Positions 26,395 through 52,659 of a stretch of 64,000 nt of DNA are shown here, piece by piece. This stretch comes from a virus (Duplodnaviria; Heunggongvirae; Uroviricota; Caudoviricetes), in the IMG/VR virus record IMGVR_UViG_3300042691_025398, positions 119,814 through 183,813 of that record; one strand, given 5' to 3'. Each line of letters begins with the position of its first letter. Position 1 is the stretch's first letter. Both the position numbers and the translations under genes were made by a program. A model generated the notes under the pieces. That model saw only the letters and a list, made by a program, of their open reading frames with translations. It did no database searches and was not told the DNA's origin.

Positions 26395-26480
26395 AGCTCA
26401 CTTTGGAACCTAGAGGTAGCGGTTCTAGTTCACAGGCAGCAGCCGCCCGCGACCACAGCTTACGGTCCTAAGGTGGTCAT
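26395..26480 (-). ncRNA. unassigned three-hairpin structured element
   Basis: GACCAC-CTTA-GGACCG-TAAG-CT-GTGGTC, then GCGGGCGG-CTG-CTGCCTGT, then GAACTAGA-ACCGCTACC-TCTAGGTTC, followed by AAAGTGAGC-TTTT. GC-rich island in an AT-rich gap. Confidence 0.45.
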
Positions 26481-27373
26481 ATAAACTTGTTGATTCCGGA
26501 TTCTTCATCCATGTAGTCTGGATTGGCTTGTTCTTGTTGACCACGACGTCGTGAACAATACATTTCACAAGCCAGTGATGCCTCTTCTAAACTTTCAAAA
26601 GCAGTTGGCAAAACTTTTTCACTTACACTGACTCTAAATCCATCATCTTCGTTGCCGTGTATTCTAATTTCTTTGCCATCTGGGGTGTTTATGGTTTTCA
26701 ATGGCAAAAATTTTTCTATGTCTGGTTTTTGTAATTCTTGCTTGGCTTTTCTAATTAATGAACGATCGCGGCCAACCAGTTCGTCTTCAACACTGCGGAG
26801 ATAATCATGTAGTCCTCGACGGATCTTGCCCAGTACGTCTTCAGCTGCAATCATTTGCTGCACACTGTCTGTTTCTTTTACAGCATCTGTTTTTTTGGGA
26901 TATCCATGTTTGATATCTAGACTGTATCCACTAAGGCCTTTTTTATCCAGCACATCGCTGATAAACTGTTCTGCCTCTTTGGCATTGGTAAAACGATCAC
27001 CTAGATCATATTTGCGTGTTTCGCCATCAATGGTTACATAGGCAATGGTTATGGGCTTGACCACAGGTTCTGCTGCATATGAAGGGCTGCCTAAAGCTGT
27101 GGCGGCTGCTAGAGTAGCAGCACCAAGTGCTGACTTGATGCCTTCTTCAATGTCTGGATCTGCACTTTCACTTGCACCCACCGCATATCCTCGCATGGGG
27201 TGATCAGGATCGGTCTTGGCACCTAGCACTGATATTTTTGCAGGCTTGAACAGTGCAGGCAATTGAGGCACAGACTTCTGTTGTTTGTTTAGATCTTTTG
27301 ATAACTCAGCTGAGGTCACACTGCCTTCTGCAATGGTATCAAGTCGGGCTAGTATTTGATAAAAGTCGTTCAT
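26477..27373 (-). CDS. modular hypothetical protein (probable virion cargo)
   Basis: 298 aa; hydrophobic-x-E junctions (IAE, IEE, VKE); internal signal-like helix. Confidence 0.75.
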   Translation of the reverse strand: MNDFYQILARLDTIAEGSVTSAELSKDLNKQQKSVPQLPALFKPAKISVLGAKTDPDHPMRGYAVGASESADPDIEEGIKSALGAATLAAATALGSPSYAAEPVVKPITIAYVTIDGETRKYDLGDRFTNAKEAEQFISDVLDKKGLSGYSLDIKHGYPKKTDAVKETDSVQQMIAAEDVLGKIRRGLHDYLRSVEDELVGRDRSLIRKAKQELQKPDIEKFLPLKTINTPDGKEIRIHGNEDDGFRVSVSEKVLPTAFESLEEASLACEMYCSRRRGQQEQANPDYMDEESGINKFI

Positions 27374-27813
27374 GCTCGCGCCTCTTTTAAAAATGAGCGC
27401 AGCATCCAGCGATGTTTGCCCATGGCGTCAATTCTACCAGCAAGGAAATCCATGATACCCTGTTGATTTTCAGCTTCAGCATCTTGAAACGCCATGTTTA
27501 GAATCTCAAGCATTTTATCAGAATCTTGATATAATTCTTCAATCATGAGTCTAGCTCTTGGCACCTTGATCTGACCTTGGATTAGGGAAAGTTCTTGAAA
27601 TCGCTCAAAACTACCTGGTGCGTAGTCATCAAGGACTCTAATGAATTCTGCTGTGCGGTCTATGCTATTTCCATATACTTCTTCGTAGATTTCTCCAAAG
27701 AATTCATGCAACTGGGCAAAATCAGGCCCTTCTACATTCCAATGAAAAAACTGTGCTTTGATCACAAAAGCATAACTTGAGGCAAGAACTTTCTTTAAAG
27801 ATTCAGCTAGCAT
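27370..27813 (-). CDS. dps: Dps-family ferritin-like DNA protection protein
   Basis: FFHWNVEGPDFAQLHEFFGEIY, DRTAE and KHRWML. Start moved to MLAES at 27813. Confidence 0.85.
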   Translation of the reverse strand: MLAESLKKVLASSYAFVIKAQFFHWNVEGPDFAQLHEFFGEIYEEVYGNSIDRTAEFIRVLDDYAPGSFERFQELSLIQGQIKVPRARLMIEELYQDSDKMLEILNMAFQDAEAENQQGIMDFLAGRIDAMGKHRWMLRSFLKEARA

Positions 27814-27982
27814 TTTTATTCCGTTTAATTTGTTTAGGTTTTGGCCTATTTGCATATTTATAAGACGCAGGCGGCCTGCTCATTCTTGATACCATGGGCA
27901 TGTGCCCAAGTCCTGTGCTCACAGTTGCAATGTTGGCACTGCTGGTAGACATGTCTTCTTTGATAAATTCCCAAGCTCTCAT
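27803..27982 (-). CDS. 59-aa MRAxEF-motif protein (below ORF-track cutoff)
   Basis: Hand translation MRAWEFIKEDMSTSSANIATVSTGLGHMPMVSRMSRPPASYKYANRPKPKQIKRNKNAS*. Confidence 0.65.
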   Translation of the reverse strand: MRAWEFIKEDMSTSSANIATVSTGLGHMPMVSRMSRPPASYKYANRPKPKQIKRNKNAS

Positions 27983-27984
27983 GA

Positions 27985-28269
27985 TTAGCCTATCAAGATT
28001 ATTCCGTTGCTTTTGACTCTAACTGGTCCATATAAAGCCTGAATAGATATCACATCCAATGAAGCCAAACAAGGTTGTACCAGTTCAAATTTAATTTGGT
28101 ACTTGCCCGGTACAGCTTGTATTTGGAAAATTTCTTCTATTAGATTGTCAGTCCAAATCCAGGTTCTTTCAGTAAACAGCTCGTTGTTTACCCACGCACG
28201 ATAGGCAGGATACAGTCCCTCCCAGTGGCAGTTCAGCTTACAGGCAATTTTAACGATGTCATTGGACAT
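27985..28269 (-). CDS. hypothetical protein
   Basis: 94-aa ORF with TAAATA 4 nt upstream. Confidence 0.65.
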   Translation of the reverse strand: MSNDIVKIACKLNCHWEGLYPAYRAWVNNELFTERTWIWTDNLIEEIFQIQAVPGKYQIKFELVQPCLASLDVISIQALYGPVRVKSNGIILIG

Positions 28270-30131
28270 GCTATATTTAGCTCAAAATCGGCTGACATAT
28301 CCAAGGGTGTAAGAGCAATTGTGGCCTTGCCAAATCCTTCTTTTCTACGCAGAACCACAAAACTCACAAACTCTTCGATGTCCGCCCAAGATTCTGTTTG
28401 TCCTGATGAAAACTCGCATGAAACTGGAGCCTGTGTTATCACGGGTTCTTGATCTATGATCCAATCAATCAAATTGCTGGCCAGTGTGACTGTGGTCACT
28501 GGTGGCCCATATGGATCAATTACCCAGTATCGCTGTAGCTCAATCACTTCTTGTTGATTTTGATCCTCACAAATGCTGCTAAACCATGTGGCCAGCTTGT
28601 CAAGGTATAGATCGCGATGCCTATACATGTCTTTCACTGTGTCCCATAAAGCATAATATTCAATACTGCGACCATGTTGATAAAAATCATTCACTGTGTT
28701 TCTAAAAGCTTCTAGCTTTGGCTTAAAGAAATTGTCTGAGTTCAACCACTGTTCAAAGTGTTCATAGATGTGTTTGTAAGTGAATCCGCGCTTGCGCAGA
28801 TAACGAGCATATAACTCTGTCCATCCGTGATGATGAAACGTGATAATCAGCCAAGAAAACACCATGGCATCTACCATGTCTGTGGCTGTCATGGTACTGG
28901 TTTCTGTGGCCACATGCTGTTGTTCATTAATGCCACTACGAGCGCAGGTCCAATAATCTGATATCACAGTGCTTTTGATTTTATACTGTTCAACCTGTTT
29001 GGTCATTTCAGCGTTGCGCAGCAGTTCAATCGGAGCCACAAACACACATCCATGTTGACCCATTTCTATTAGATCCAGATGTCCTTGTCGCCAACTGTCC
29101 AGTGTTTCTTCTGGCATGCCTAGTATGAGTTCAGTATAGAAAGGAATGTGTTTGCGATTGCATGCATGAAACAATGAACTTTGATCGTTCAGTTTCATGT
29201 TCTTGCGTTTGATGGCTTCAAGCGTGGGTTCATGCATGCTTTGCACACTGAGAGTTAGCCCACGATTGAGACCATGACGAGTGAGTTCTTCTGCAATGTC
29301 TAGTATCACTTCATTGGAGTTTTTGTACCATGTGCAACTGATCTGTTGAGGGTATCCGTATTTTTGTTTGGTTTGAATAAAACATTCTGCAATGGCTCGA
29401 TCTCTATCTGGAAACACACCAAAGTTAGCATCGGCCAAGGATATGAATTCAATTTTGTTTTTACCAGCCCACTCTATTTCAGCAAAAACTTTTTCCAAGG
29501 GAAACTTCTTTATCTTGGCATAGGTAAGACTACCCCAGTCACAAAAGGTGCAGGGAAAAGGACAGCCTCTATTGGTTTCAATAGTCATGGCATAGGCGAA
29601 ACCAGGATCTGCAACCAAATGATCAAACATGCCCATTAGATAGGGACTGGGTACATCAAGGTCTTCTACTCTATGTGCAGCATAGTCTCTTCGCACACGC
29701 TGATCCAGTATGTCATTTAGCACTGTACGAAATGCAATTTCACCTTCATAGCGAATTGACACATCAATCCAGGGATTGTCCTTGCGCCATTGTCTTAGGG
29801 GTTCTTCTTCATTGGGAACATTAGGACCGCCGAAAATAATCACGCAGTTAGGGAATCGATCTTTAACAGCTTGACTCAGCGCAAGATTATAATTTTCATT
29901 CCAAATGTAATTGCTGAATCCACAAACAGCAGGATTTTCAAGACTGTTGACCACTTGGTCCACTGGATCACGCAAGATGCCAAGACCAGCCAAATGGAAA
30001 TTTTCCGCAAGTCTTGGATCAGTCATGGCGTAACTCCAAATGCAGCCCACTGTGTAGGGTAGCCATACCGAAGTGACATTGCCATGCCCCATTTCAAAAT
30101 TTGGGGCGTAGAGATACACGTTTTGTTTCAT
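28233..30131 (-). CDS. cobalamin-binding radical SAM protein
   Basis: N-terminal B12-binding Rossmann pattern (VCGFSNYIWN, IIFGGPNV), ETNRGCPFPCTFC, LADANF and ELILGMPEET. Confidence 0.85.
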   Translation of the reverse strand: MKQNVYLYAPNFEMGHGNVTSVWLPYTVGCIWSYAMTDPRLAENFHLAGLGILRDPVDQVVNSLENPAVCGFSNYIWNENYNLALSQAVKDRFPNCVIIFGGPNVPNEEEPLRQWRKDNPWIDVSIRYEGEIAFRTVLNDILDQRVRRDYAAHRVEDLDVPSPYLMGMFDHLVADPGFAYAMTIETNRGCPFPCTFCDWGSLTYAKIKKFPLEKVFAEIEWAGKNKIEFISLADANFGVFPDRDRAIAECFIQTKQKYGYPQQISCTWYKNSNEVILDIAEELTRHGLNRGLTLSVQSMHEPTLEAIKRKNMKLNDQSSLFHACNRKHIPFYTELILGMPEETLDSWRQGHLDLIEMGQHGCVFVAPIELLRNAEMTKQVEQYKIKSTVISDYWTCARSGINEQQHVATETSTMTATDMVDAMVFSWLIITFHHHGWTELYARYLRKRGFTYKHIYEHFEQWLNSDNFFKPKLEAFRNTVNDFYQHGRSIEYYALWDTVKDMYRHRDLYLDKLATWFSSICEDQNQQEVIELQRYWVIDPYGPPVTTVTLASNLIDWIIDQEPVITQAPVSCEFSSGQTESWADIEEFVSFVVLRRKEGFGKATIALTPLDMSADFELNIACPMTSLKLPVS

Positions 30132-30139
30132 CCGGTTAT

Positions 30140-30370
30140 TTAATAGGGACGTTTTTCAGCTTCACTTTTACAGCCTTCCCACCAGCTGTTACTATTACCA
30201 GGAGGACACATGGCAGGATTTGTAATGCCACGTGCTTGTGCCCATGTATCCCCAGCTTGATGGCCAGAGCAGTCTTTGGTACATGGATATGTACGCCAGG
30301 TAAGACCTGTGTCTACTTCGCGTATGCCTTTGCGTTTTGCACGTTTGCGAATGAATTCACGAGCTCGCAT
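30140..30370 (-). CDS. small Cys-containing MRAxEF-motif protein
   Basis: True start MRAREFI at 30370; YPCTKDCSGHQAG module. Confidence 0.7.
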   Translation of the reverse strand: MRAREFIRKRAKRKGIREVDTGLTWRTYPCTKDCSGHQAGDTWAQARGITNPAMCPPGNSNSWWEGCKSEAEKRPY

Positions 30371-30588
30371 TATATCAGTTTCTTTCCTGGCGGCAGGCGT
30401 TTTACTGCGCCAATATCGTGGGTTTTGATATTGTACTGTGCTTTGATTAGAGCGCGAGCTGCGGCTGCGCTGGGTGCGCTCACTGTGACATTGATTCTGC
30501 CAAGATAACCTGGTTGACTGATCTTGATCGTGGCCTGCCACAGATCATAATTTTGAATGGTATTTTCAAAAATATCAGTCAGTAACAT
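30370..30588 (-). CDS. small hypothetical protein
   Basis: True start MLLTDIFE at 30588, coupled to both neighbours. Confidence 0.65.
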   Translation of the reverse strand: MLLTDIFENTIQNYDLWQATIKISQPGYLGRINVTVSAPSAAAARALIKAQYNIKTHDIGAVKRLPPGKKLI

Positions 30589-30986
30589 TATTTCAATTGT
30601 CCTGTTTTCATAACAGCCGCGGCGTTTTTCATATTGGATGCTGGTGGTACCGCACCACCAGCTGCTGGATTGCCAGCACCGCGTGAGATACTGATGGGTC
30701 CAATCTTGGTTGTTGGTGGCTGTGTACGACCGGTCCAACTGCCGTCTGGTTTGGTTGAAGTTACATTAACATTTGAGGGTATGGAAGCGGAAGCAGCTCG
30801 TTGAGTTTTTATCTCTTGATCCATTGCATCAAGATTTTTAGTAAGGCTATTAGAGTAATCTTGAATATCCTGTGCAATGTTTTTGGCCATGCTGCCTGTG
30901 CTCATGGCTCCGGCTTTCACAGCATCTTGGTAGGGCATTTCAGATTCTGTTTTGGTTTTGGATTTTATAAATTCTTTTGCCTTCAT
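30588..30986 (-). CDS. MKAxEF-motif hypothetical protein
   Basis: True start MKAKEFIK at 30986 (ATGA overlap). Confidence 0.7.
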   Translation of the reverse strand: MKAKEFIKSKTKTESEMPYQDAVKAGAMSTGSMAKNIAQDIQDYSNSLTKNLDAMDQEIKTQRAASASIPSNVNVTSTKPDGSWTGRTQPPTTKIGPISISRGAGNPAAGGAVPPASNMKNAAAVMKTGQLK

Positions 30987-32314
30987 TTTTTTCGTCCTGA
31001 TTTCATGTTTGCACACCAGTGTGCCATGCGCTGGCGTTCACCCGAGCTGTTGCTGGCTATGCTTCTCAATTTACTTATTGACTGTTTGCAATTAACTCCA
31101 ACACGCTTGGCTAATCCCTTGCGTCCGGGCTTTTTACCATCGGCAAAGTTTTCTGTTACCCCATCATCGGGCTTTTTGAATTGCATTTTACGACCACTAC
31201 GCCATTGGTCGTACATCACTGCTGGATCTCGTTCCCACACAGTTTCGCCAGTGCCATCTTTAATTGTAAAGATTTGATTGTCTGCACTATCTGGATCTGT
31301 GTCTATTATAATCTCAACTTCTTGAATAGCCGGGCCCAAGGAGGGAAATTCTCCAATTAGATGTGAGCGATATGGATCGCCCACGTATAATTTAAATGGA
31401 CCAAATCCGTCTTCACCAGGATCAAATTCATAAAGTCTAACCACTGAAGTTACTCCGTGAGCATGGGGCTCACCGGGAATCACAGTGTTGAGCATGAGCG
31501 CACCACTGTCCAGCATCAACATGCCAAGTGATATATCAGTCTTTGGATCAAACACCCAGACTTTTTGGCCTGTTTCAACTTTTTTCAGTTTCTTTGACAC
31601 CTTAGACAAACGACGCAGTGTTTTTTCAACTGCGCTAATCTCAATGTTGCGACTTGCGGCTTGATCATAAAGATGTTTATGAATAGGTATTACTAGACTA
31701 CCAACAGTAGCAGTGCCAAGAATTTTTGGACTATACAACGTGCCAACAGTGGCTTCATCAACAGTGTCGCTGTTGATGTTGTAGATCTTTTTCAACTGTT
31801 CTATAGCTGAAGACGCATTGTTCCAACGGTACAGCACAGCTATACCGCCGTCGGCCTGCCAGGCATTTACATATTTTTTAAAATCATCAACCAACACATT
31901 TGCTTTGCCATTGGCAGTGGCATAGCGTTGTTTTTCATTAGTAAAAATAGCAGAGTCTGCGGTGCCTGGATGATGACGATTCAACCATGTGAGTTTGCCA
32001 CGTATGCTGGCGTCTTCATTGCCGCGTAATGGAGCACTTAGAATTGTGTACTGAATATTGTTGTCGCGTAGAAAAGCGATCAGTTGTTGTGCTCCTGGTA
32101 AAACTGGCAAGGTGGCAAAAAACTTTTCCACAAATTCTGGACCACGACTATTGAGGTCAGCGATACTGGCTTCACGAGCAGCACGATCACCAATTTCTTT
32201 ATACTGCTCTTTGCCAAACAGTCTAGCCCAGGCTGTGAAAAAATCAGCTTGTACTCCATCCATGTCTAGATATAGATGCGGACGATGGCCTTGCGTGAAT
32301 TCTGATGCTCTCAT
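30983..32314 (-). CDS. HAD 5'(3')-nucleotidase (NT5C-like) fused to C-terminal modules
   Basis: LYLDMDGVQADF (DxD), ILSAP, GKLTWL and VLVDD; MRASEF start; modules after VDE, LYE and VTE. Confidence 0.85.
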   Translation of the reverse strand: MRASEFTQGHRPHLYLDMDGVQADFFTAWARLFGKEQYKEIGDRAAREASIADLNSRGPEFVEKFFATLPVLPGAQQLIAFLRDNNIQYTILSAPLRGNEDASIRGKLTWLNRHHPGTADSAIFTNEKQRYATANGKANVLVDDFKKYVNAWQADGGIAVLYRWNNASSAIEQLKKIYNINSDTVDEATVGTLYSPKILGTATVGSLVIPIHKHLYDQAASRNIEISAVEKTLRRLSKVSKKLKKVETGQKVWVFDPKTDISLGMLMLDSGALMLNTVIPGEPHAHGVTSVVRLYEFDPGEDGFGPFKLYVGDPYRSHLIGEFPSLGPAIQEVEIIIDTDPDSADNQIFTIKDGTGETVWERDPAVMYDQWRSGRKMQFKKPDDGVTENFADGKKPGRKGLAKRVGVNCKQSISKLRSIASNSSGERQRMAHWCANMKSGRKK

Positions 32315-32931
32315 TATCTTGTCCTTGTAGCAGAGAACACCTTCATGTAATCCTTGAAGTTTTCGTGTCTATCTGCCAATCCATTTAACTTGGGGTTGAT
32401 TCGCTGTGTTACCGCACGAGTGTCGTTGAAATTGCTCACCGCAGGCCTCACACGACTGGCCCAGTACCACACAGCTATTTTTGCTGCTATGTCAGGTCTA
32501 CTGGCCAGTTCGGGTCGGTCTTCCAGTGGTAGTCCTAGGGCTTGTCCGGCACGGCGATAATTATCTCTACCAGTTATTTGTATAAAGCCACGGCCTTTGT
32601 ATCGCACACCATCACCTTTATAAACATTGCCTAGATCTCTGCGTCCTTCGTATTCTTTGCCACTAGCATATTCGTGCATGCGTTTGAATCCAGCTGATTC
32701 GTGAAAACACTGTGCGAGAAACTGTGCCAACTCAACTCCACGGATACCGGCTTGTTTTGCAGTGCGATGTAACAGCATTTCAGCATCAAAGTTTGCACTC
32801 AGAGCAGGCGGACTAACTTCAGGCGTGCGGGCTTGTGCACTGGGAACCCCGGCAGCAGACATAGCACCAGCACCCAAAGCTCCTAGGAATCCTCTACGAT
32901 CAATTTCCGTGATGAATTCAAGGGCTCTCAT
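32314..32931 (-). CDS. GH19 glycoside hydrolase (lysozyme/chitinase) with MRAxEF leader and Tat-like signal
   Basis: FLAQCFHESAGF and YKGRGFIQITG..NY; N-terminus MRALEFITE-IDRRGFLGALGAGAMSAAGVPSAQA. Confidence 0.88.
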   Translation of the reverse strand: MRALEFITEIDRRGFLGALGAGAMSAAGVPSAQARTPEVSPPALSANFDAEMLLHRTAKQAGIRGVELAQFLAQCFHESAGFKRMHEYASGKEYEGRRDLGNVYKGDGVRYKGRGFIQITGRDNYRRAGQALGLPLEDRPELASRPDIAAKIAVWYWASRVRPAVSNFNDTRAVTQRINPKLNGLADRHENFKDYMKVFSATRTR

Positions 32932-34052
32932 TTTAACTCCGTGTCACTTTTAGTAAAAGTATCAACAATCTTATAATGTCGAGGTCCTACCAATTCAAAA
33001 TCATACTTGTCATCGTCGTCAATTTTGAAAGGGCGAAGAAAATGTCTTGTCTTACGCTTAATTGCTAACGCACCGTTAGGAGTAAATCCTGTTTGCTCGA
33101 GGTCTGCACGATAAACTCTGCCCATTGCACCAATTACTGCTAGGTCTACTTGATAACCTTGCTTTAATAATCTATCAGTAATAGTAACAATCTGGCTGAT
33201 CCCTTCACCATCATCACCATCACGGTCGTCTAGGAATTCGTTTAATTGTGCATTGAAAATTAACTCTGCAAGTTTAAGTGCATTGTCTCTAGTTTTTGGG
33301 ATCGCTACACCGGCTTTACGACCTCTGCCAAATCCTTGTTCATAATCAAGCAAATGAATATTAACAGTAGGGTATTCACCTCGCTTACCTACTAGACTAT
33401 AAAGTATTGCACCGTTTCGAGTTTTGTCTTTTGGTTCAAACTTTACGCTAACTTGCTCTGGTCGTTCGCCGTCTTTTCTAGTATATCCACGACCTAAATA
33501 TTGCTCTATAATATCAGCAAATTCAGTTAGTGGGAAAGACTCAGGATCTTCTTTACCGCCATCACCAAAGTCGGGAGTTGGTGCAAATTCATTTAAGGAA
33601 TCTTCCGCTACACCCGGATTCGTGCTGGTCAGTTCATAACTTACGCCATGTCCTGATTCCCAACGATCAACACGATATCCTAACGCACTGGCATAACGCT
33701 GTACTAATCTATCATATAATTTTGCACGACTGTCTGACTGTTGCGATTCGTCTTTTTTGGCTGCTTCAAATGATAACGACCTTGGATGATACTTTTTAAT
33801 AAATTCAGCTATTGCTGCTAACACAGTGGCAAATATTCTTTGTGCGTCACCTTCGCCAGTGACTGATTGACTGTGTCCACGCCAAAACTCTACAGAATAC
33901 TCATCTTCCCCTTCCTCATTGAACATAATAGAAAGATATGCCCCATCAGGAAGTAAAACTAGTGCATCGTGGTCATTGCCGTGATCACCTTTTTCCCAAC
34001 GTAGGTTATAGGGTTGATCAAACGCTTCAATTATAAATTCTTTAGCTCTCAA
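32928..34052 (-). CDS. modular MRAxEF-motif protein
   Basis: TTG start overlapping the upstream TGA gives (M)RAKEFIIE; internal module headers LNEFAP and LNEFLD. Confidence 0.75.
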   Translation of the reverse strand: MRAKEFIIEAFDQPYNLRWEKGDHGNDHDALVLLPDGAYLSIMFNEEGEDEYSVEFWRGHSQSVTGEGDAQRIFATVLAAIAEFIKKYHPRSLSFEAAKKDESQQSDSRAKLYDRLVQRYASALGYRVDRWESGHGVSYELTSTNPGVAEDSLNEFAPTPDFGDGGKEDPESFPLTEFADIIEQYLGRGYTRKDGERPEQVSVKFEPKDKTRNGAILYSLVGKRGEYPTVNIHLLDYEQGFGRGRKAGVAIPKTRDNALKLAELIFNAQLNEFLDDRDGDDGEGISQIVTITDRLLKQGYQVDLAVIGAMGRVYRADLEQTGFTPNGALAIKRKTRHFLRPFKIDDDDKYDFELVGPRHYKIVDTFTKSDTELK

Positions 34053-34717
34053 TCTAGCAACCCTCCTAACCATAACACAAAAGGATCATTTACAACGATA
34101 GTACCGTCGGCTCGTCGCATGTAATTTCCTTTATGTAAATCAATTGAGTATCCTTGCTTACGTCCAAAACGTTTGACATCATACACTGTGTTTAGTAAAT
34201 TCGCTGCTGCTCGCTTACCACCTAAATGCTTTACAGCGTCTTTTAACTCATACCACGTACCACCGCCTTCATCGTTGAACGTATGCATAGCATACTGAGC
34301 TATTGTTTGAAGTTCTTTTTTGTAATCTGTTTTACGTTTCTTTATAACTTCATCAACATGAGCAACTAGATATCCTATTTCGTCAGGTAACTCTTGCAGT
34401 GGTTCCATCCTTGCTTGAATATAATTTTGACCTTGAAATCTAAAACTTTCAAATCCTGAAAATCTTGGCAGGTGCGGATTTTTTTTATTTTTATTGCAAT
34501 AGTTGATCCAGTTAATAAACATACGTTGATCAGGGCTGAAATCTTTTTGACCTTTACGATAACCAAACACAATCAACACCTGTCCTGTGCCTGGCTCCAG
34601 GTAGGCTTGTTTGTCAATACCACCACCTAGATATTTGTATCCTTTTTGTGACAAGGCTTGGCTTATGCCAACATTAATGACACCGGCCATTTCTGTGGTG
34701 AATTCGGAGGCTCTCAT
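34049..34717 (-). CDS. protein-kinase-like (PKL fold) protein with MRAxEF leader
   Basis: Gly loop YLGGGIDKQAY, MEPL, catalytic DLHKGNYM and VVNDPF. Confidence 0.7.
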   Translation of the reverse strand: MRASEFTTEMAGVINVGISQALSQKGYKYLGGGIDKQAYLEPGTGQVLIVFGYRKGQKDFSPDQRMFINWINYCNKNKKNPHLPRFSGFESFRFQGQNYIQARMEPLQELPDEIGYLVAHVDEVIKKRKTDYKKELQTIAQYAMHTFNDEGGGTWYELKDAVKHLGGKRAAANLLNTVYDVKRFGRKQGYSIDLHKGNYMRRADGTIVVNDPFVLWLGGLLD

Positions 34718-37700
34718 CTCGCTGGTACTACCATAAATTCACCGCTGCCCAGTAGGCCTTGTTGTCTTAACCAATTGGCGGCGTATACATTTGCCTCACC
34801 TTGGTTACTACGATGTACAAAACTGTACACTTCACGATCATTCGGGTCTAATATCAACCAACGAGTATTACCTGGTGGTAGGCTTTCTGTACCACGTGCT
34901 TGATCTTGTTGTCCAGCTAATCTTTGATTTATGCGATCCTGTGTAGATCCTGGAATCGGCGTTCCGTCAGTGGGCCTGCCTTCTATAGGGCGAACGGCAT
35001 ATCTCGTGCGCCAACTGCTGTCACCAGGTTGATATTCTCCTGTTCCCTGTACCCAATCGCTAAGTTTTGCTATTGCTTCTTGGGCGGTGTTGGCGATAAA
35101 TCTAAACACCACTCGGTCCGATCCACCGCTACGATCTATGATCTCATAGTTGGCACCGCTAGTTGGTTCGCCTCCTGCCCGACCTACTGGATTGGCTTCT
35201 ATAGATCTAACACCTAATCCTCTTTCTGCCAATCCAGCACGCACACGATCCATGGCAGCATTGGCATTAGGAGCTCTAGTGTTAATATCATGTGGATGTC
35301 CGTAGTCATCTGTCCATTGAACATTATAAAGTTGTTCTGTTTGTGCTGCTGGTGCAGATGTATTAGCAGGCGAACCATCTATTTTATAGGCAGTGTTGGT
35401 ATTAAGATCAATGATTCTAATATCTTCAGGGGTAAGGTTATATCTGGGAGTACCAATGTATATGTTGGTCATTTCAACCGTGTATGCAAAAGTTCGTGTT
35501 GCGCCGCCTAATATTACTTGTCCATCTCTATTATCAATCACTTGATATATGCTGGTATGCGGTGCTCGGGCAAATCCACCACCACCTGTGGATCTTGGCC
35601 GCATCTGTGGACGTACATATATAGGATCATCAAATCCTGTTTGCTCCTGCCATCTTTGGGCGTATCTTTCTGCATCCTGAATAGCATTACCTATGCCACT
35701 TATGGTGTGTACAACTTCGTCAGTGGATCTACTTACAACTTCCCATGTACCAGTAAACTCTTGGTCACGGCTCGAAGTTTGTGATTGTGTACCGGTATTG
35801 TATCTAGCAGGCCTTCCGTCAATGTCATAGACCTGACCATTGTCGGTGTTTATGATACGGATATCTGCACGACGTATATTGTTGCTCAGAGCTATCTCTG
35901 CTGCTGCTTGGGAGGCATAAATGAATGTTCCACCAAGACCTTGTAACATATTGCGAGTAGCTTGATTCATGATGGCCCACGAACCCGGTGTATTACTTGT
36001 CGCTGCTGGATAATCTAGAGGAGTAGCTGTAGAGTCTGAATCAGACGGACCTTGGTCAGGCGAAAGTTTCTTCAATTTACGCTGTTGTTGTGCTTGCTTA
36101 ACGAAACTCTTTAATGCTGACTGTGGTAGTTCTCCAGCTGCATAACGTGCAAAGAATTGAATAGTGTCATCACTTTCGCCTAGAGATAGAGTCTTGTACA
36201 ACTTCTTCATGTACTCTTGACGATATAATTCGGGTTTCATGGCAATGTCTAGTGCCACTGTAAAACGCAGTAGAGTGTTTTTAATCTTATCTGGATCAGC
36301 TGCATATTCCCCTAGCCAATCACCCCCAGGGCTACGAAACTCAATGTATCCATCTTTGGTGTTGATACTGGTGTATTTGTTTGTGGTGCCGGTGTGTACA
36401 ATCTTTGATGCCATGGCACTGAGATTGCCTTGCATCTGTTGCAGCATGGTCTTGACTTTGTCAGGATTGGTGCGGGCGATCTTTTTAATGTTTTCCATGG
36501 CACTGGAACAGTAGCTATTACCAGCACGACCAAATTGATCTAACACATACTCATCGCCCAAGAATATGGCCAACTTAACATAGTCAAGTTTGCTGAGTTC
36601 AAAACCAGGAACACTCACATTCATGTGCAAACCAGTGGTGCTGTTGGTGTAACAGTCGTTACGAGCAGCCCATTTCACCACCTTGTCTAGATCAGATAAC
36701 ATCTCATCTAAGGGCAGTGGCGGGCTAATAAATTCCAATCCGCCGTCTTCGGGATTGTCAGGATCACTAAGACTGCTGTCTGTTTCTACACGATAGTTAT
36801 CGGTTTGACTACCAGCACCACTGTGGTAACCACCTGATTTAACTCTGCGACCAATGGCTGATTGGAAATCACTGGCAACGTCGTTGATGTCTATACTACC
36901 ACCGCCGCTGTCAGAATATAACACATAGGGCCAATCAAGACTAAATTGATTGCCGAAGTCCAACATGGTATCGATGTCGTTATCGCTTAAGAAATCTTCC
37001 CATTGATCTTCGCTTTGATATTCTTCTTGGAACTGTTCCATGGCACGGTCATGTTCTGGACCGCCAGTTTCGTTCGCCACAGTAAGAATACGCTCCTGGT
37101 AGTCTTCGTCACTTTCACCGTCGTCCTGTGGAAGTTCGTTTTTGAGATAATCCAAGAACACGCTATAATTATCGTCTGACCACTCCTGGAAGTTTTCGTC
37201 TTTCCATGCCCAGTAATCTTCATCTAGTCTGTCAAGGGCACGTTGAATTGTGCTGGTAGTGTTACCGTAATCGCCGCCTCTAAAGAAGTCCATGACTTCT
37301 CTCTGCCAGCCACGACCAGTTGGAAAACTTTCGTCCATGTCATAGTCTGGCTCAACCTCTCCATAGTCTTCGTCGGCTTCGGCAGCATTGGGCACATACA
37401 TTTCGAATTCCATGCCGGCTATGGCACCAGTTTTAGCGGCCATCTGTCGGAGATTACTGGGACTCATGTTTACTTCGTTTAGTTCTTCTTCGTCTTTAAT
37501 TGATTCTAGCAAACGATTGAGTTTTTTCATGAGCAGCTGAGGATGTCCTTGACTGTCCACGTCTAGATTTAATTTGTTTGCTTCTTGACCTATTTGTCCT
37601 GGTTTGATATCCACAGTGAGAGCCATTTTGAATCTTGGATCTTTGGCCTGCCGTTTGGTTGGGATATATCCTGAGCTTTCTCTTACATTAGGCTCGCCTC

Positions 37701-39501
37701 TTAATCGGTCTCTCAATCTATTGATTAATTCTTCCTTGGCGCCACCTAGGCCCATGTCTTTAACTGACTGTGCTGTGCGTCCTACGGTCTGTACTCCACG
37801 TAGCACATCAGTGGTAGGAGAATCAGTAGTGGCACAACCTGGTGTGCCTGCTATGCAAGCCGCAGCAGCCGCGGTGCCCAGTGCTGACTTCCAATCTTCA
37901 TCTACATTGTAAGTGGGATCAACCTTTTGGCGAGGAATGTTTTTAGGTTGTTTAGGATCAACAGGATCAATGTCAGTGGTTGATAGGCCAGTTTTTTCTA
38001 AATCCTTGATGTATTCATGTTCGGTGTCTTCGTCGCCAAAACTGATAATGGCACTGGGTGGGCCTTTGCCAAAATCATGTTTGCCAAGGCCTTTCATGTT
38101 GCTAATGTGCTGTCCCAGTTTGTACCAGTCGTACACATCACTCACGTCCACTTTAACAGTGCCTGCTGGCATTGTGGGTTTGGATTCAGGTCCTGGTGGA
38201 GTTGCATTGGGATCATAGTCTTCGCCCAGATCCGGATCAAACATGTGAGGATTCTGTTTGTTCCAATGCCGCATGATTTCACCAGCCTTGGCATTGGCTT
38301 CGTTTTCCCATTTGCTTCCGGTTTTGCCTGCATCAGGAGGCAACGGACTGGTCTGATCTTGAGCAGCATGCACTAGTTCATGTGCAAGTGTTCGCAGGAT
38401 ATCAATGATATGTCGATCCACCACACTGATGTGCAGAGTCTTGGTCGTGTGATCATATTGCCCAAAGCTGTTGGAATTCTTGCTCCAGCTGGAATCGGAA
38501 TGTGTGCGTATTTTTGGCAAGCGTTTCATGCCCAACTGTCGAGCACAGAACTTGGCGAAATCAGCTATGGTACTGCGAATGTCCGTTTTGTTGTCTTCAC
38601 TAGTGAACATTCTAGTGGTTGGACTTACGCCATCCCAACTGCTGCCCACGTCTTCGCGAACACTTTCACCGCCACCGCCATCTCCACCACCGCTGTCGCT
38701 GCCAGACTCTCCACTGCCGCCGTAATATCCAAAACCAGGATACCAATAACCGCCATAGGCATAACGGCGACGTGATTTTTTACGCTTGCGTTCTACCAAG
38801 CTGAGTTCATCATCCTTGGCCTGCTGTCGGGCTGTTTGTAATTTTTCTATTACGCCGTTAACTCTCAGCAGTTTGAACACAAGATTTTCTGTGCTGAATT
38901 CACCCTTCTGCTCCAGGCCTGCTTTGCGCATGTCTTTGATTTTTTGCCAAAGACGATCCATGGTCTCGCGTTCTCGAGAAGCAATGGCCTGCTCAATTCT
39001 GGCTTCTAGATCTTCGGCTTTGTGCTGTACAGATTGGTCGTCAATGTCAGCACGTTTGCGACGCGGCACTGACAGCCATTTATTTTGTAGAATACTGTAG
39101 ATGCCTTGACTCACATGTGTATCTCCAGCGGGCTGCACATACAGCTCTACATCTGAGCCTCGCACACGAAGATCATGCTGGTCGTTGTATTGGTACTTTT
39201 TGGCGTTGAACAGTTCACGATACACTTCATCTGACAGTTCAGGAATGTCCACCACAAGGTGTAGATCTATGTCGCTGTTGGGAGTGTAATTGAAAGCAGC
39301 ATTGCTGCCTGATATAGTGATGTCTTTGACTTCTAGATTTTTAACACCCAGAAATTCTCTAAAGTCATCAGCAATGCGCAACAGAGCGTCGCGCACTTCG
39401 GGGCGCAGATTTTCATCTTTGCCCCAAAGTCCAGGATTAAGCCGATCGTGAAATCTAACAGCGTCGGCTAAATTATAGTTTTCCAGTTCATCGATATGCA
39501 T
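34714..39501 (-). CDS. 1595-aa multidomain protein: Pol-beta-like nucleotidyltransferase, zincin HExxH module, putative amidoligase (COOH-NH2 ligase type 2), C-terminal repeats
   Basis: GSNA...SDIDLHL; LAHELVHAAQ; GMEFEM...VETDSSL...LEFISPP...GLHMNVS...YIEFRSPG. Confidence 0.8.
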   Translation of the reverse strand: MHIDELENYNLADAVRFHDRLNPGLWGKDENLRPEVRDALLRIADDFREFLGVKNLEVKDITISGSNAAFNYTPNSDIDLHLVVDIPELSDEVYRELFNAKKYQYNDQHDLRVRGSDVELYVQPAGDTHVSQGIYSILQNKWLSVPRRKRADIDDQSVQHKAEDLEARIEQAIASRERETMDRLWQKIKDMRKAGLEQKGEFSTENLVFKLLRVNGVIEKLQTARQQAKDDELSLVERKRKKSRRRYAYGGYWYPGFGYYGGSGESGSDSGGGDGGGGESVREDVGSSWDGVSPTTRMFTSEDNKTDIRSTIADFAKFCARQLGMKRLPKIRTHSDSSWSKNSNSFGQYDHTTKTLHISVVDRHIIDILRTLAHELVHAAQDQTSPLPPDAGKTGSKWENEANAKAGEIMRHWNKQNPHMFDPDLGEDYDPNATPPGPESKPTMPAGTVKVDVSDVYDWYKLGQHISNMKGLGKHDFGKGPPSAIISFGDEDTEHEYIKDLEKTGLSTTDIDPVDPKQPKNIPRQKVDPTYNVDEDWKSALGTAAAAACIAGTPGCATTDSPTTDVLRGVQTVGRTAQSVKDMGLGGAKEELINRLRDRLRGEPNVRESSGYIPTKRQAKDPRFKMALTVDIKPGQIGQEANKLNLDVDSQGHPQLLMKKLNRLLESIKDEEELNEVNMSPSNLRQMAAKTGAIAGMEFEMYVPNAAEADEDYGEVEPDYDMDESFPTGRGWQREVMDFFRGGDYGNTTSTIQRALDRLDEDYWAWKDENFQEWSDDNYSVFLDYLKNELPQDDGESDEDYQERILTVANETGGPEHDRAMEQFQEEYQSEDQWEDFLSDNDIDTMLDFGNQFSLDWPYVLYSDSGGGSIDINDVASDFQSAIGRRVKSGGYHSGAGSQTDNYRVETDSSLSDPDNPEDGGLEFISPPLPLDEMLSDLDKVVKWAARNDCYTNSTTGLHMNVSVPGFELSKLDYVKLAIFLGDEYVLDQFGRAGNSYCSSAMENIKKIARTNPDKVKTMLQQMQGNLSAMASKIVHTGTTNKYTSINTKDGYIEFRSPGGDWLGEYAADPDKIKNTLLRFTVALDIAMKPELYRQEYMKKLYKTLSLGESDDTIQFFARYAAGELPQSALKSFVKQAQQQRKLKKLSPDQGPSDSDSTATPLDYPAATSNTPGSWAIMNQATRNMLQGLGGTFIYASQAAAEIALSNNIRRADIRIINTDNGQVYDIDGRPARYNTGTQSQTSSRDQEFTGTWEVVSRSTDEVVHTISGIGNAIQDAERYAQRWQEQTGFDDPIYVRPQMRPRSTGGGGFARAPHTSIYQVIDNRDGQVILGGATRTFAYTVEMTNIYIGTPRYNLTPEDIRIIDLNTNTAYKIDGSPANTSAPAAQTEQLYNVQWTDDYGHPHDINTRAPNANAAMDRVRAGLAERGLGVRSIEANPVGRAGGEPTSGANYEIIDRSGGSDRVVFRFIANTAQEAIAKLSDWVQGTGEYQPGDSSWRTRYAVRPIEGRPTDGTPIPGSTQDRINQRLAGQQDQARGTESLPPGNTRWLILDPNDREVYSFVHRSNQGEANVYAANWLRQQGLLGSGEFMVVPAR

Positions 39502-39519
39502 ATGAACTGTATTTATTGC

Positions 39520-49541: not shown

Positions 49542-50006
49542 TTATCGCTCCGGATGCGGTGGCTCAGTAGGAGCCGGTTTACCACCAAATCCTGCTGTGA
49601 CCTGTGGTACAAAGTCACTTAAAGAAGGCATGGCTGGCGCAGTGAATGCAGCTGGTGCTGTGGCACGAGGTGCAGGTTCAGGTGCAGGGGCTGGAGGTGG
49701 CACATAGGGTTTGTTTGCAGATTCCAAGGCCTTGGCACGCAGATCTTTGTCTTCTCCTGCCAACATGATGCCTGACAGTGTGCCGGTCAAAAATGTTGCA
49801 ATGGGAATAATTAATTCAAAGAATTTACTGTCAACTGGTGAAATTTTATTTGTAGGCTGTGTGACAAATATCAAACTGTACAGTACCACAAACACAATAC
49901 CAAACAAGGTAAGTCCAAGAATAATACCAATAAAGAATTTCAACCTAGCATTTAATTCGTCTGTGGTGTATCTAGGTCCTTCCCACATGTCTTTAATCAT
50001 TTGCAA
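49542..50006 (-). CDS. two-TM membrane protein with Pro/Ala tail (holin/antiholin candidate)
   Basis: FFIGIILGLTLFGIVFVVLYSLIF and LIIPIATFLTGTLSGIML. Confidence 0.55.
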   Translation of the reverse strand: MQMIKDMWEGPRYTTDELNARLKFFIGIILGLTLFGIVFVVLYSLIFVTQPTNKISPVDSKFFELIIPIATFLTGTLSGIMLAGEDKDLRAKALESANKPYVPPPAPAPEPAPRATAPAAFTAPAMPSLSDFVPQVTAGFGGKPAPTEPPHPER

Positions 50007-50242
50007 TCTCCTTTAGGTGCAACCTCTGCGGGTGCTGCCGGGGCCGACGGTGCCGGCGTTGCTGACGAATTCTGTCCGTCAACATTGTATTTTAATAGAT
50101 CTTCTGGGCAGGTGCCATTGGCCACACAATAGGGCTTTTTGCACTGTTTTAATTCCCAGTTGTCTGGATCTTGGCAAGGATAACGATAGCGTTCTTCACA
50201 GGCCATTAATAACGGCAAGATCAAAAGTGCTAGATATTTCAT
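49997..50242 (-). CDS. small lipoprotein
   Basis: MKYLALLILPLLMAC lipobox; Cys-rich mature part. Start moved to 50242. Confidence 0.7.
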   Translation of the reverse strand: MKYLALLILPLLMACEERYRYPCQDPDNWELKQCKKPYCVANGTCPEDLLKYNVDGQNSSATPAPSAPAAPAEVAPKGDCK

Positions 50243-50243
50243 A

Positions 50244-50390
50244 CTAGCGTCCTTGTCCACGGTTCTTTTTATAACTGCGACGCTGAGCCTTGTTCATGCT
50301 GGAAGTCTTGATCTTGCGTCCACCTTGGCTGGTACGCTTGTGAGTGGATTCATGTGCGAGTTGTGTTGCGCTTTGTTTGATTTTGGCCAT
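50244..50390 (-). CDS. 48-aa highly basic peptide (below ORF-track cutoff)
   Basis: MAKIKQSATQLAHESTHKRTSQGGRKIKTSSMNKAQRRSYKKNRGQGR*; AGGAG SD. Confidence 0.75.
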   Translation of the reverse strand: MAKIKQSATQLAHESTHKRTSQGGRKIKTSSMNKAQRRSYKKNRGQGR

Positions 50391-50391
50391 G

Positions 50392-51006
50392 TTATGCTCC
50401 TAGTACATGCAAGGCATGATTGTAGTGTTTGATTCTATCATCAAGGCCAATAAATCCGCCGTTGATCTTGCGAGTCATGGTCTTGATATCATTTGCGTCG
50501 GCTTCTTTGTTTAGATTGTTGGTTTCCCAGAACCAACAGGCACTTTGAGCAGCGCCTTCAAAAGTGGCCATGTATTCAGCAGCTTCTTCTGGTGAGATTT
50601 CCAATGACGCAGCAAACCAGGAATAGTTTTCTTTGCCTGTGAGTTGTATCAGTCCGCGGCCACGATATCTAAAGCCATCACCCGAAGCTTCATCGCCGTT
50701 GCCCATGCGACTGGCATAGATTCTATTGGCAATCTTTTCTGGCTTTTTAGCATAGGCATCTGCGAGTTCACGTGTGTGAAAATACTTGGGGAAAGTCTTC
50801 ATGAGACTTTCTGCTTTGTAGTTTAGATTTTCTGTGACAAATCTAAATCCACCCGACTCGTGTGCACACTGTGCAACAAATGCTGCTATACGCTTGGGGG
50901 TATTGATTCCATAGTCTGGCAGCAGTTGCTTGAGTGCGCTGTGCCAGTTGTCGGCATAGGGTATGCCGTGTACCATTTCTTTGAGTTGATTGAGTGTCAG
51001 CTCCAT
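50392..51006 (-). CDS. GH19 endolysin
   Basis: FVAQCAHESGGF, ENLNY, YRGRGLIQLTG..NY and TRKINGG. Start moved to MELTL at 51006. Confidence 0.9.
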   Translation of the reverse strand: MELTLNQLKEMVHGIPYADNWHSALKQLLPDYGINTPKRIAAFVAQCAHESGGFRFVTENLNYKAESLMKTFPKYFHTRELADAYAKKPEKIANRIYASRMGNGDEASGDGFRYRGRGLIQLTGKENYSWFAASLEISPEEAAEYMATFEGAAQSACWFWETNNLNKEADANDIKTMTRKINGGFIGLDDRIKHYNHALHVLGA

Positions 51007-51066
51007 GCTAGCTCCCTTGTTATTGTTTGCCAATATTTAGCAAATCTTGGGAGAGAATGGGCTCAG

Positions 51067-51927
51067 CTATAATGTTAGTAGATTACAGATATCTTGTGTG
51101 AGTTTGGCTGCTGTGAGTAGATCATAATGATGATGATCACGTGCCCAGTCCAGGCGTTGAATTTCTGGTATCCATTTGCGATTGGCCGGCCAATTTTGTA
51201 CGGTACGTGCAATTTCTGGATCCGCGCTGAAGTCAGGAATGAATGAATGCACAATATCACAGTGACCTTGGACAGCCCACACCTGTTGCACACACTGTGT
51301 GAAATTCACAGTGTTTAATGTGGGATCTAACACTGCCTCACGTTCGGGAATGTCAATGCGTCGTTCTTCGTCGCCAATTGCGGTTATTTGCAAAAAATAA
51401 GGATCCTTAACAATTTCTCGCAAAATTCCAGCGGGCAACTGCTGCCTGTCTTGCCAGCTTACCTGCGCAGGCCAAGACCTATCACGCACATCACGATAAA
51501 AAGCCTGCCAACGCTGTTCAATCACATGATCAAGATCCTGGCTTTCTCTACGATGTGTGTAGCTCCATTGTATGACCATGCTCTGTGCCAGTCCACTGGC
51601 AAGTATTTCACAGGCTCTACGGCTGATCCAGGTGTTGCTGGCTCCGTCCATGCTGACGTTGATAGTGCGTAGACCAGTGCGCTGTTGCAGTAGATAGCAC
51701 CAGGTGTGTGCCAAGGGAGATCCAATGCCCACAGTGAAACTGTCGCCCACACACCAGATCACATGATCAAATGTGTCAGGCCACTCCTGATCACGAAATC
51801 CGCGACTGTTATAACGATATTCTATGGGATAGGGATAGGCTTGAAAATGCTGTGCATCATTGCAGTTTTCAAGTGTGTCCATGCCGGAAGTGGTCCAAAC
51901 TTCAGAGGCCCTGCTGGGCAACCGCAT
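51067..51927 (-). CDS. SGNH-like hypothetical protein
   Basis: WCVGDSFTVG, GASNTWISR, IQWSY and DWARDHHH; start uncertain (track gives 52032). Confidence 0.65.
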   Translation of the reverse strand: MRLPSRASEVWTTSGMDTLENCNDAQHFQAYPYPIEYRYNSRGFRDQEWPDTFDHVIWCVGDSFTVGIGSPLAHTWCYLLQQRTGLRTINVSMDGASNTWISRRACEILASGLAQSMVIQWSYTHRRESQDLDHVIEQRWQAFYRDVRDRSWPAQVSWQDRQQLPAGILREIVKDPYFLQITAIGDEERRIDIPEREAVLDPTLNTVNFTQCVQQVWAVQGHCDIVHSFIPDFSADPEIARTVQNWPANRKWIPEIQRLDWARDHHHYDLLTAAKLTQDICNLLTL

Positions 51928-51943
51928 GGTGGGAAACAGCGCA

Positions 51944-52210
51944 TCAGTAGGCAGACTCAAAGTTTTTCTTTTGTTCTGTGTACCACTGCTGCCATAGTTC
52001 ATAGCGTCGCACCAGTTCATGATAGCGGCCATAATTTTCAGCTGTGTTGTTGATCAACTGATCCAGCTCGGCCGTGCCAGCAGGCAATGGAACCAATTTG
52101 GGAGCAGGTTCCAGCATCACAGGTGCTGCTTCGGGAAATCGTTGTTTCACAGGCACCGGGGTTTCGCAGCCTGCTAGCATAATCATAAAAGGAATCAATA
52201 GATATTTCAT
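51944..52210 (-). CDS. o-spanin-like lipoprotein (Rz1-like)
   Basis: Lipobox MLAGC followed by a Pro-rich segment; coupled to the i-spanin-like gene. Confidence 0.7.
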   Translation of the reverse strand: MKYLLIPFMIMLAGCETPVPVKQRFPEAAPVMLEPAPKLVPLPAGTAELDQLINNTAENYGRYHELVRRYELWQQWYTEQKKNFESAY

Positions 52211-52659
52211 TTTGAGGCCTCCGGTGCTGTGATACTTTTGTTATACACATCAATTGCAGTGGGATTTAATTTACAGCCTTCATTGATGATTTCACGCTTG
52301 ACTTCAATTTCTTTTTTAACCACGTTCACACGCTGCTTGACCACCTTGACTCTATCCACATATTCAGTGACCACACGTTCGGTGATTTCTGGGGCTCGAG
52401 CTTCTGCTGCTCGCACTTTTTCTTCTGCCACTCGCACTCGTTCGCGCCAGACTATTTCGGTTTCATAAACACCGGTTAAATACACACCCGACAGCAACAG
52501 TATCACGCCTGTGATCTGTATGGGCAATCTATACATGTTGATAAATGGCACTATTTTCAACACACTGGCCACCACGGTGATCACAGCACCCGTGATCAAC
52601 AGTCCCAAGGCCAGAGCATACAACAGGCCATCAGGAAGAAATTGAATAATCCAAAACAT
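52207..52659 (-). CDS. i-spanin-like protein (Rz-like)
   Basis: N-terminal TM helices, periplasmic coiled coil and C-terminal Cys. Confidence 0.65.
   Translation of the reverse strand: MFWIIQFLPDGLLYALALGLLITGAVITVVASVLKIVPFINMYRLPIQITGVILLLSGVYLTGVYETEIVWRERVRVAEEKVRAAEARAPEITERVVTEYVDRVKVVKQRVNVVKKEIEVKREIINEGCKLNPTAIDVYNKSITAPEASK

Follow-up and report, generated by a model that had tools for sequence, protein, structure and literature searches.

We analysed a 64,000-nucleotide stretch of a virus record (positions 119,814 to 183,813 of IMGVR_UViG_3300042691_025398), hereafter called the window, to which all coordinates refer. The record holds 192,332 bases and is about 55% complete. It encodes a prohead protease of the Peptidase_S77 family (E 2.4e-28), and the major capsid protein shares 62-67% identity with the counterparts in PA5oct, Phosso, Vibrio 2.275.O, and fHe-Yen9-04; by these two markers, the phage is an uncultured jumbo phage of the T4 type. 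The ORF studied here (32314-32931, minus strand) codes for 205 amino acids, which its sequence, the Pfam and TIGR01409 matches, and an AlphaFold model divide into a leader, a Tat signal, a linker, and a GH19 muramidase domain. Residues 1-34 correspond exactly to 32830-32931 on the minus strand. A preliminary description had read this segment as a leader ending in ITE, followed by a twin-arginine motif, an AQA site, and then GH19, and this was confirmed by translation, TIGR01409, and Pfam. The start codon is credible because a Shine-Dalgarno GGAG is found at 32937-32940 (minus strand, reading 32940-32937) and the start overlaps the stop of the upstream gene (ATGA).

The GH19 domain covers about residues 48-200 (32332-32790, minus strand), as placed by Pfam (E 1.7e-11), alignment, the AlphaFold model, and a fold match. 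In the model, residues 1-37 mostly had a pLDDT below 50, and the domain was confident from about residue 41 to 200. The modelled domain was nearest in fold to GH19 endolysins, such as 9MS7 and 4OK7, which suggests that the enzyme hydrolyses peptidoglycan. E78, E87, and T120 were invariant among 52 aligned homologs. Mapped by motif and spacing onto SPN1S, in which the catalytic residues are E49/E58/T130 (PMC8547705), they correspond to the catalytic acid, the base, and the water-binding residue. With its catalytic residues intact, the enzyme appears to be active.

The ORF belongs to a run of eight leader-bearing, translationally coupled genes (30140-39515, minus strand) with a TAAATA late-promoter-like site at 39515-39510. 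The members are an NTase/amidoligase polyprotein, a kinase-like gene, DUF6934, GH19, NT5C, and three small ORFs; their starts are alike and their bodies unlike. The neighbours of the GH19 gene are NT5C, DUF6934, and the kinase-like gene, and no holin or spanin gene lies beside it. The DUF6934 gene (32928-34052, minus strand) probably starts at the TTG at 34052, with a leader, and not at an upstream ATG. Within the leader-gene region, ferritin/Dps-like and B12-binding radical SAM genes (27370-30131, minus strand) lack leaders.

A separate, signal-less GH19 gene had also been reported in the window, and it was found at 50392-51006 (minus strand, probable ATG at 51006), with 30% identity to the first and among lipoprotein and membrane genes. 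The region 49542-52659 (minus strand) contains this gene, two genes for small lipoproteins, and two for membrane proteins, one of which has two helices and a soluble tail. The spanin assignment there is weak (PHROG Rz-like, E 0.017), as are the other family matches. From its gene content this is probably the lysis region, and the second GH19 is likely the lysis endolysin; it is the better candidate for lysis since it is signal-less and sits among spanin-like genes. The lipoprotein and membrane genes around it also suggest a Gram-negative host.

Residues 1-9 of the first GH19 protein (32905-32931, minus strand) resemble a capsid-targeting leader and end in I-T-E, a predicted prohead-protease site, as judged from the T4 IPII/IPIII alignment, the gp21 motif, and the neighbouring genes. 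The E-F-I-x-E block aligns with the IPII/IPIII leader read from the T4 genome. The leader Phe matches T4 position 7, and the Tyr of T4 position 4 is absent. In T4, gp21 cuts after L/I-X-E, capsid targeting relies on residues 4 and 7, the head receives 20-200 copies of a leader fusion, and head internal proteins are delivered to the cytoplasm (PMC9026906). I7-T8-E9 fits L/I-X-E, and the genome encodes a gp21-type (S77) protease as well as a scaffold-like protein rich in [ILV]-x-E. Leader-like starts were present in 67 of 195 genes flanking the homologs, compared to 3 of 205 genes elsewhere in this genome. The small head-core protein of this phage also starts in this way, and its ortholog in the cultured relative PA5oct, gp333 (40% identity), is one of four leader-like ORFs annotated as virion proteins by mass spectrometry. 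Four of the six leader-like ORFs in PA5oct are virion proteins, compared to 93 of 461 ORFs overall, an enrichment (p ~0.02) that is post hoc because the start pattern was chosen after looking. The spread of the leader, the T4-like block, and the PA5oct virion proteins therefore make packaging of the GH19 protein into the head plausible by analogy.

Residues 10-34 (32830-32904, minus strand) form a predicted Tat signal, with RR at 12-13, an Ala/Gly h-region, and an AQA peptidase-I site at 32-34; the assignment draws on TIGR01409, invariance in homologs, and synonymous Arg codons. The twin-arginine motif, D-R-R-G-F-L, occupies residues 11-16, is followed by G, and fits the TatP pattern as quoted in PMC6085387. 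The score against PF10518, the Pfam Tat model, was 13.7, below its cut-off of 22.7. At least 20 uncharged residues follow the RR, and the h-region is weakly hydrophobic (best 12-mer KD 1.46). Since RRxF[LIVM] occurs only twice in the 84,159 ORF residues of the genome, its presence here is beyond chance; the other match falls in an ORF of 64 aa that runs against the local genes and is probably no gene. An internal Met start giving a leaderless form was considered and rejected. Two codons before the RR, ATG was seen in only 4 of 22 cases; this gene has ATT there, and the residue at this position alternates between I, M, and L among homologs, which argues against a hidden start.

The preliminary description had held that the leader masks the Tat signal until it is cut off, and for this copy the sequence did not bear it out. 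The RR at 12-13 falls within the first 35 residues searched by TATFIND, and the full, uncut protein passes TIGR01409, the NCBIfam Tat model (18.1 bits, cut-off 16.7). A cut at E9 would add just one unit of side-chain charge to the n-region (0 to +1; family mean, 0.17 uncut versus 1.1 cut). Natural Tat substrates tolerate long acidic or internal n-regions: the P. aeruginosa substrate PA4140 has a longer, strongly acidic one (PMC6085387), and Class IV and V substrates carry internal signals that need no prior cut (PMC13673990). Without any cut, the precursor thus already resembles a Tat substrate and might be exported in the producer cell. The protein could then be a Tat-secreted second lysin or wall remodeller that acts late in the producer cell, its leader being incidental or giving a dual fate and the buried copies described below being uncut Class V internal signals. 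The location of the gene in a late-promoter operon and the shortened leaders of a few homologs, for example P0081 and P0110, would suit such a role. We consider it unlikely, as the same leader marks cytoplasmic enzymes and the head-core protein, a signal-less endolysin is already encoded, and two properties of the homologs, the retained cleavage site and the non-lytic cargo, point away from it.

Homologs were gathered by whole protein or by enzyme domain and clustered at 90% on the domain, which gave 117 clusters. The signal slot held an RRxF Tat signal in 67 clusters, another signal-like peptide in 39, and none in 11, two of which are incomplete gene calls. The preliminary description had staked the Tat assignment on conservation of RRxFL, and the motif was present in 94 of the best 120 homologs. 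R12, R13, F15, L16, and A34 were invariant in 52 aligned Tat-type homologs, the residue at -1 of the RR was S, T, D, or N, and an AxA-like site followed the signal in 65 of the 67 Tat clusters. No single-arginine variant occurred in 110 slots. The Arg codons varied synonymously, with four and six different codons at the two positions, and a DNA or RNA motif in place of a protein motif was rejected on this ground. Judged by conservation, the lack of single-arginine variants, and the synonymous codons, selection acts on the Tat signal. A recent capture of a bacterial GH19 secreted by Tat was unsupported, as the signal was seen in 0 of 80 of the listed GH19 relatives from bacterial genome assemblies. 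The best "cellular" GH19 match, on a Crocinitomicaceae MAG contig (JBDNIA010000291.1; L115), opens with a leader of phage type; the contig is probably phage DNA placed in the wrong bin.

The cleavage site was retained along with the signal. Glu was found 3-4 residues ahead of the RR in 62 of the 67 Tat clusters and [ILV]-x-E before the signal in 61 of them, fusions included, which a lysin exported uncut from the producer cell would not lead one to expect. In 14 clusters the Tat signal is buried 65-625 residues into a fusion, behind eight different upstream modules. [ILV]-x-E was kept in 13 of these 14 (background about 1.3% per position). The leader Phe was lost in all 14, compared to its retention in 28 of 52 N-terminal forms. 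This retention in fusions is the strongest reason to think that the cut matters, although inheritance of nearby residues could partly explain it. In a quick-version tree, both signal types and both positions, N-terminal and buried, recurred in several places. Several relatives, such as P0096 and P0100, have a DUF6934 module fused ahead of a Tat or non-Tat GH19.

The peptide in the 39 non-Tat clusters begins after E with a G-W-K-D-W-like stretch, continues with an Ala/Gly stretch, and often ends in AxA. Its mean best 12-mer KD was 1.7 and its n-region was roughly neutral. Three clear Sec-type signals of this genome reached 2.4-2.8, with the limit that they were picked for scoring above 2.3. With its weakly hydrophobic core and near-neutral n-region, the non-Tat peptide would be a poor Sec signal. 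A related cassette, with an I-E-E site and a non-Tat signal-like peptide, was recognised from sequence at 27071-27151 (minus strand), buried in the ORF at 26477-27373. The domain of about 60 residues behind it carries a Tat signal in L037 and L050 (E ~5e-11), which shows that one type can replace the other on a second cargo as well. The module of this ORF also occurs within another polyprotein in L003.

Such swapping at one slot, on GH19 and on the second cargo, could mean that the peptides are ejection or membrane-docking helices of head proteins and have nothing to do with the Tat route; the ejected enzyme would be held at the inner membrane, and the two types would be equivalent. Both are weakly hydrophobic, and processed gp53 of SPN3US begins with G-W-K, like the non-Tat cassette (PMC7411985). 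A docking helix would not call for the hallmarks of a host translocase and its peptidase, namely RRxFL without single-arginine variants, S/T/D/N at -1, an AxA-like site in nearly all Tat clusters, and lipobox variants. We therefore regard it as decidedly unlikely.

A third cassette of the window (37834-37905, minus strand) is buried in the 1595-aa polyprotein encoded by the ORF at 34714-39501 and consists of a V-D-E site, a non-Tat signal-like peptide, and a lipobox-like P-G-C; the same cassette is found in L004 and L045. About 50 residues follow the P-G-C before another Glu site. A small lipoprotein, made in advance and comparable to exclusion lipoproteins, could result from this cassette.

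A leader-plus-signal profile matched 479 clusters (50% identity), mostly non-GH19 proteins; enrichment of E among these matches was left uncounted because the profile itself contains the E and the count would be circular. The bulk of the non-GH19 cargo had no Pfam name, and the named domains were mostly of envelope type: TonB-C (7 of 94), M48 (5), further GH19 (5), LysM with lysozyme, TolA-C, and SLT. TonB-C and LysM lay directly behind the signal in the cases checked. In fusions, a deaminase and DUF6934 were found ahead of the cassette. That the cassette precedes non-lytic cargo also speaks against a second lysin. In two proteins, P0172 and P0178, the leader, the Tat signal, and a canonical lipobox that ends the signal follow in order, making them candidate phage Tat lipoproteins. 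P0143 and P0197 (locus L209:6001-7404) have the leader, the Tat signal, and a TonB C-terminal domain in series; from this layout, each is a candidate virion-delivered decoy of TonB-dependent receptors. A polyprotein in genome G003 (L095:343-2388) combines an N-terminus like the NTase module of the window with DUF6934, a buried Tat signal, and an M48 peptidase.

Cultured phages were searched as well. A tblastn search of the peptide against them gave no match, a profile search found no leader-plus-Tat layout in 10 cultured phage genomes, and the non-Tat profile had no match in five. The only matches in the 10 genomes were a plain Tat protein in Phosso and a weak, stop-interrupted match in Motura. 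The former is gp354 of Sinorhizobium phage Phosso, a cultured 469-kb jumbo phage (L091:1147-1614), a hypothetical protein with an N-terminal Tat signal and no leader.

In some relatives (L010:10642-11463, L012:10641-11078, and about nine similar loci), the gene that immediately follows the Tat-GH19 frequently encodes a nuclease bearing an ordinary Sec signal (Endonuclease_NS or SNase). A TctC-family protein near these loci hints at a betaproteobacterial host. The nucleases may serve as periplasmic defence against incoming DNA. No homologs of these nuclease and TctC neighbours were found in this genome. A conserved downstream "immunity" gene was thus rejected, the Sec-signal neighbours in relatives being nucleases without a homolog here, and no muramidase inhibitor gene was found.

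We propose, at a probability of roughly one in two, that the protein is a head-packaged wall hydrolase that is cut, ejected, and exported by the Tat system of a new host, whose periplasm it conditions. The anatomy of the protein, its conservation, and the gene context were observed; the trafficking and the purpose are what we infer from them. Given the operon layout, synthesis would be late and together with the other leader-bearing genes. By analogy with T4 and the virion proteomics of PA5oct, the leader would load the enzyme into the prohead core, where the encoded S77/gp21-type protease would cut after E9. The enzyme would then be ejected with the DNA into the cytoplasm of the next host and fold there, away from ribosomes, which would suit Tat because Tat takes folded proteins. 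Host TatABC would export it (no phage-encoded TatC was found in the record, itself only about 55% complete), and signal peptidase I would cut after A34. A small dose of active muramidase would thus be freed into the periplasm early in infection. Its likely purpose would be envelope conditioning, by wall loosening or remodelling, possibly as one member of a periplasmic set that works against superinfecting phages. For this copy, export in the producer cell is probably prevented by uptake into the prohead and not by true masking. The cut would matter most in the fused relatives, where it would free the signal from upstream cytoplasmic modules.

Many virions contain a lysozyme that assists entry. 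The intact catalytic residues and the capsid leader would also fit an entry lysozyme that opens the wall after its direct release into the periplasm in the course of ejection, and a role in entry had been among the suggestions of the preliminary description. If Tat is used, such a role is unlikely because Tat acts from the cytoplasm and its cargo must already be there; on a direct route to the periplasm, a signal read from the cytoplasmic side would be useless. In T4, moreover, tail enzymes open the wall. The internal proteins of the T4 head reach the cytoplasm (PMC9026906). We hold the entry lysozyme to be very improbable.

Conservation of the Tat slot, retention of the cut site, the envelope cargo, the shared leader, the protease, and the separate endolysin all count in favour of the packaged-then-exported reading. 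Against it count the apparent Tat competence of the uncut precursor, the lack of the layout in the 10 cultured phages, the partial explanation of E retention by inheritance, the 39 clusters with a weakly hydrophobic non-Tat peptide that would serve Sec poorly, and the large share of non-GH19 cargo with no Pfam name. Muramidase activity in the periplasm at an early stage of infection would also risk harming the cell too soon. A broader proposal, which we advance tentatively and at somewhat less than even odds, is that uncultured jumbo phages of one large clade use a two-step address code. Leaders and Glu cuts would turn head-packed polyproteins into secretory precursors (Tat, Tat-lipoprotein, and a second type), and, once these are injected, host translocases would install a periplasmic kit of muramidases, TonB-C decoys, peptidases, and lipoproteins before phage gene expression.

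If the packaged-then-exported reading is true, the path from capsid to host cytoplasm, host Tat, and periplasm would add a new destination for ejected head proteins, and a phage could change the envelope of its host or exclude competing phages with zero lag. The labels "endolysin" and "chitinase" are likely to be wrong for such genes, and predictors limited to the N-terminus miss the buried signals.

The GH19 endolysins of SPN1S (4OK7) and PWe2 (9MS7) and the phage-like GH19 of Stenotrophomonas (7R6S) share the fold and the catalytic residues. The lysis cassette of this phage contains another GH19, and the gene described here lies outside it. The secreted and SAR endolysins fOg44 Lys44 and P1 Lyz are muralytic enzymes exported by a host translocase without a holin, as is proposed here; they use the Sec route in the cell that makes them and are not known to carry a capsid leader or a protease site. 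Compared to bacterial Tat signals (TIGR01409, PF10518; Class I, II, and V), RRxFL, the weakly hydrophobic h-region, AxA, and the lipobox variants are the same. The signals here differ in being phage-encoded, in standing nearly always behind [ILV]-x-E, in often lying deep in polyproteins with a cleavable site after them, and in swapping with a non-Tat peptide. Known functions of ejected head proteins lie in the cytoplasm or in the building of entry channels. T4 IPI, IPII, IPIII, and Alt share the leader of about 9-10 residues with E-F-I-x-E, the L/I-X-E cut motif (PMC9026906), the S77 protease, and the varied cargo behind one leader. The T4 cargo, in contrast, is cytoplasmic and has no export signal, and the leader here lacks the Tyr at residue 4, one of two key targeting positions. 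SPN3US gp53 and gp54 are ejection proteins whose propeptides are likewise cut after Glu by a gp21-like protease; SPN3US is a phiKZ-type phage, the propeptides have about 125 residues, and the portion of the report available mentions no export signal (PMC7411985). No description of a capsid leader and a Tat signal in series was found in the literature covered, which was mostly open-access. Both labels are known singly, and their serial use would be a variant of the T4-type ejected head proteins, with the mechanism as proposed above.
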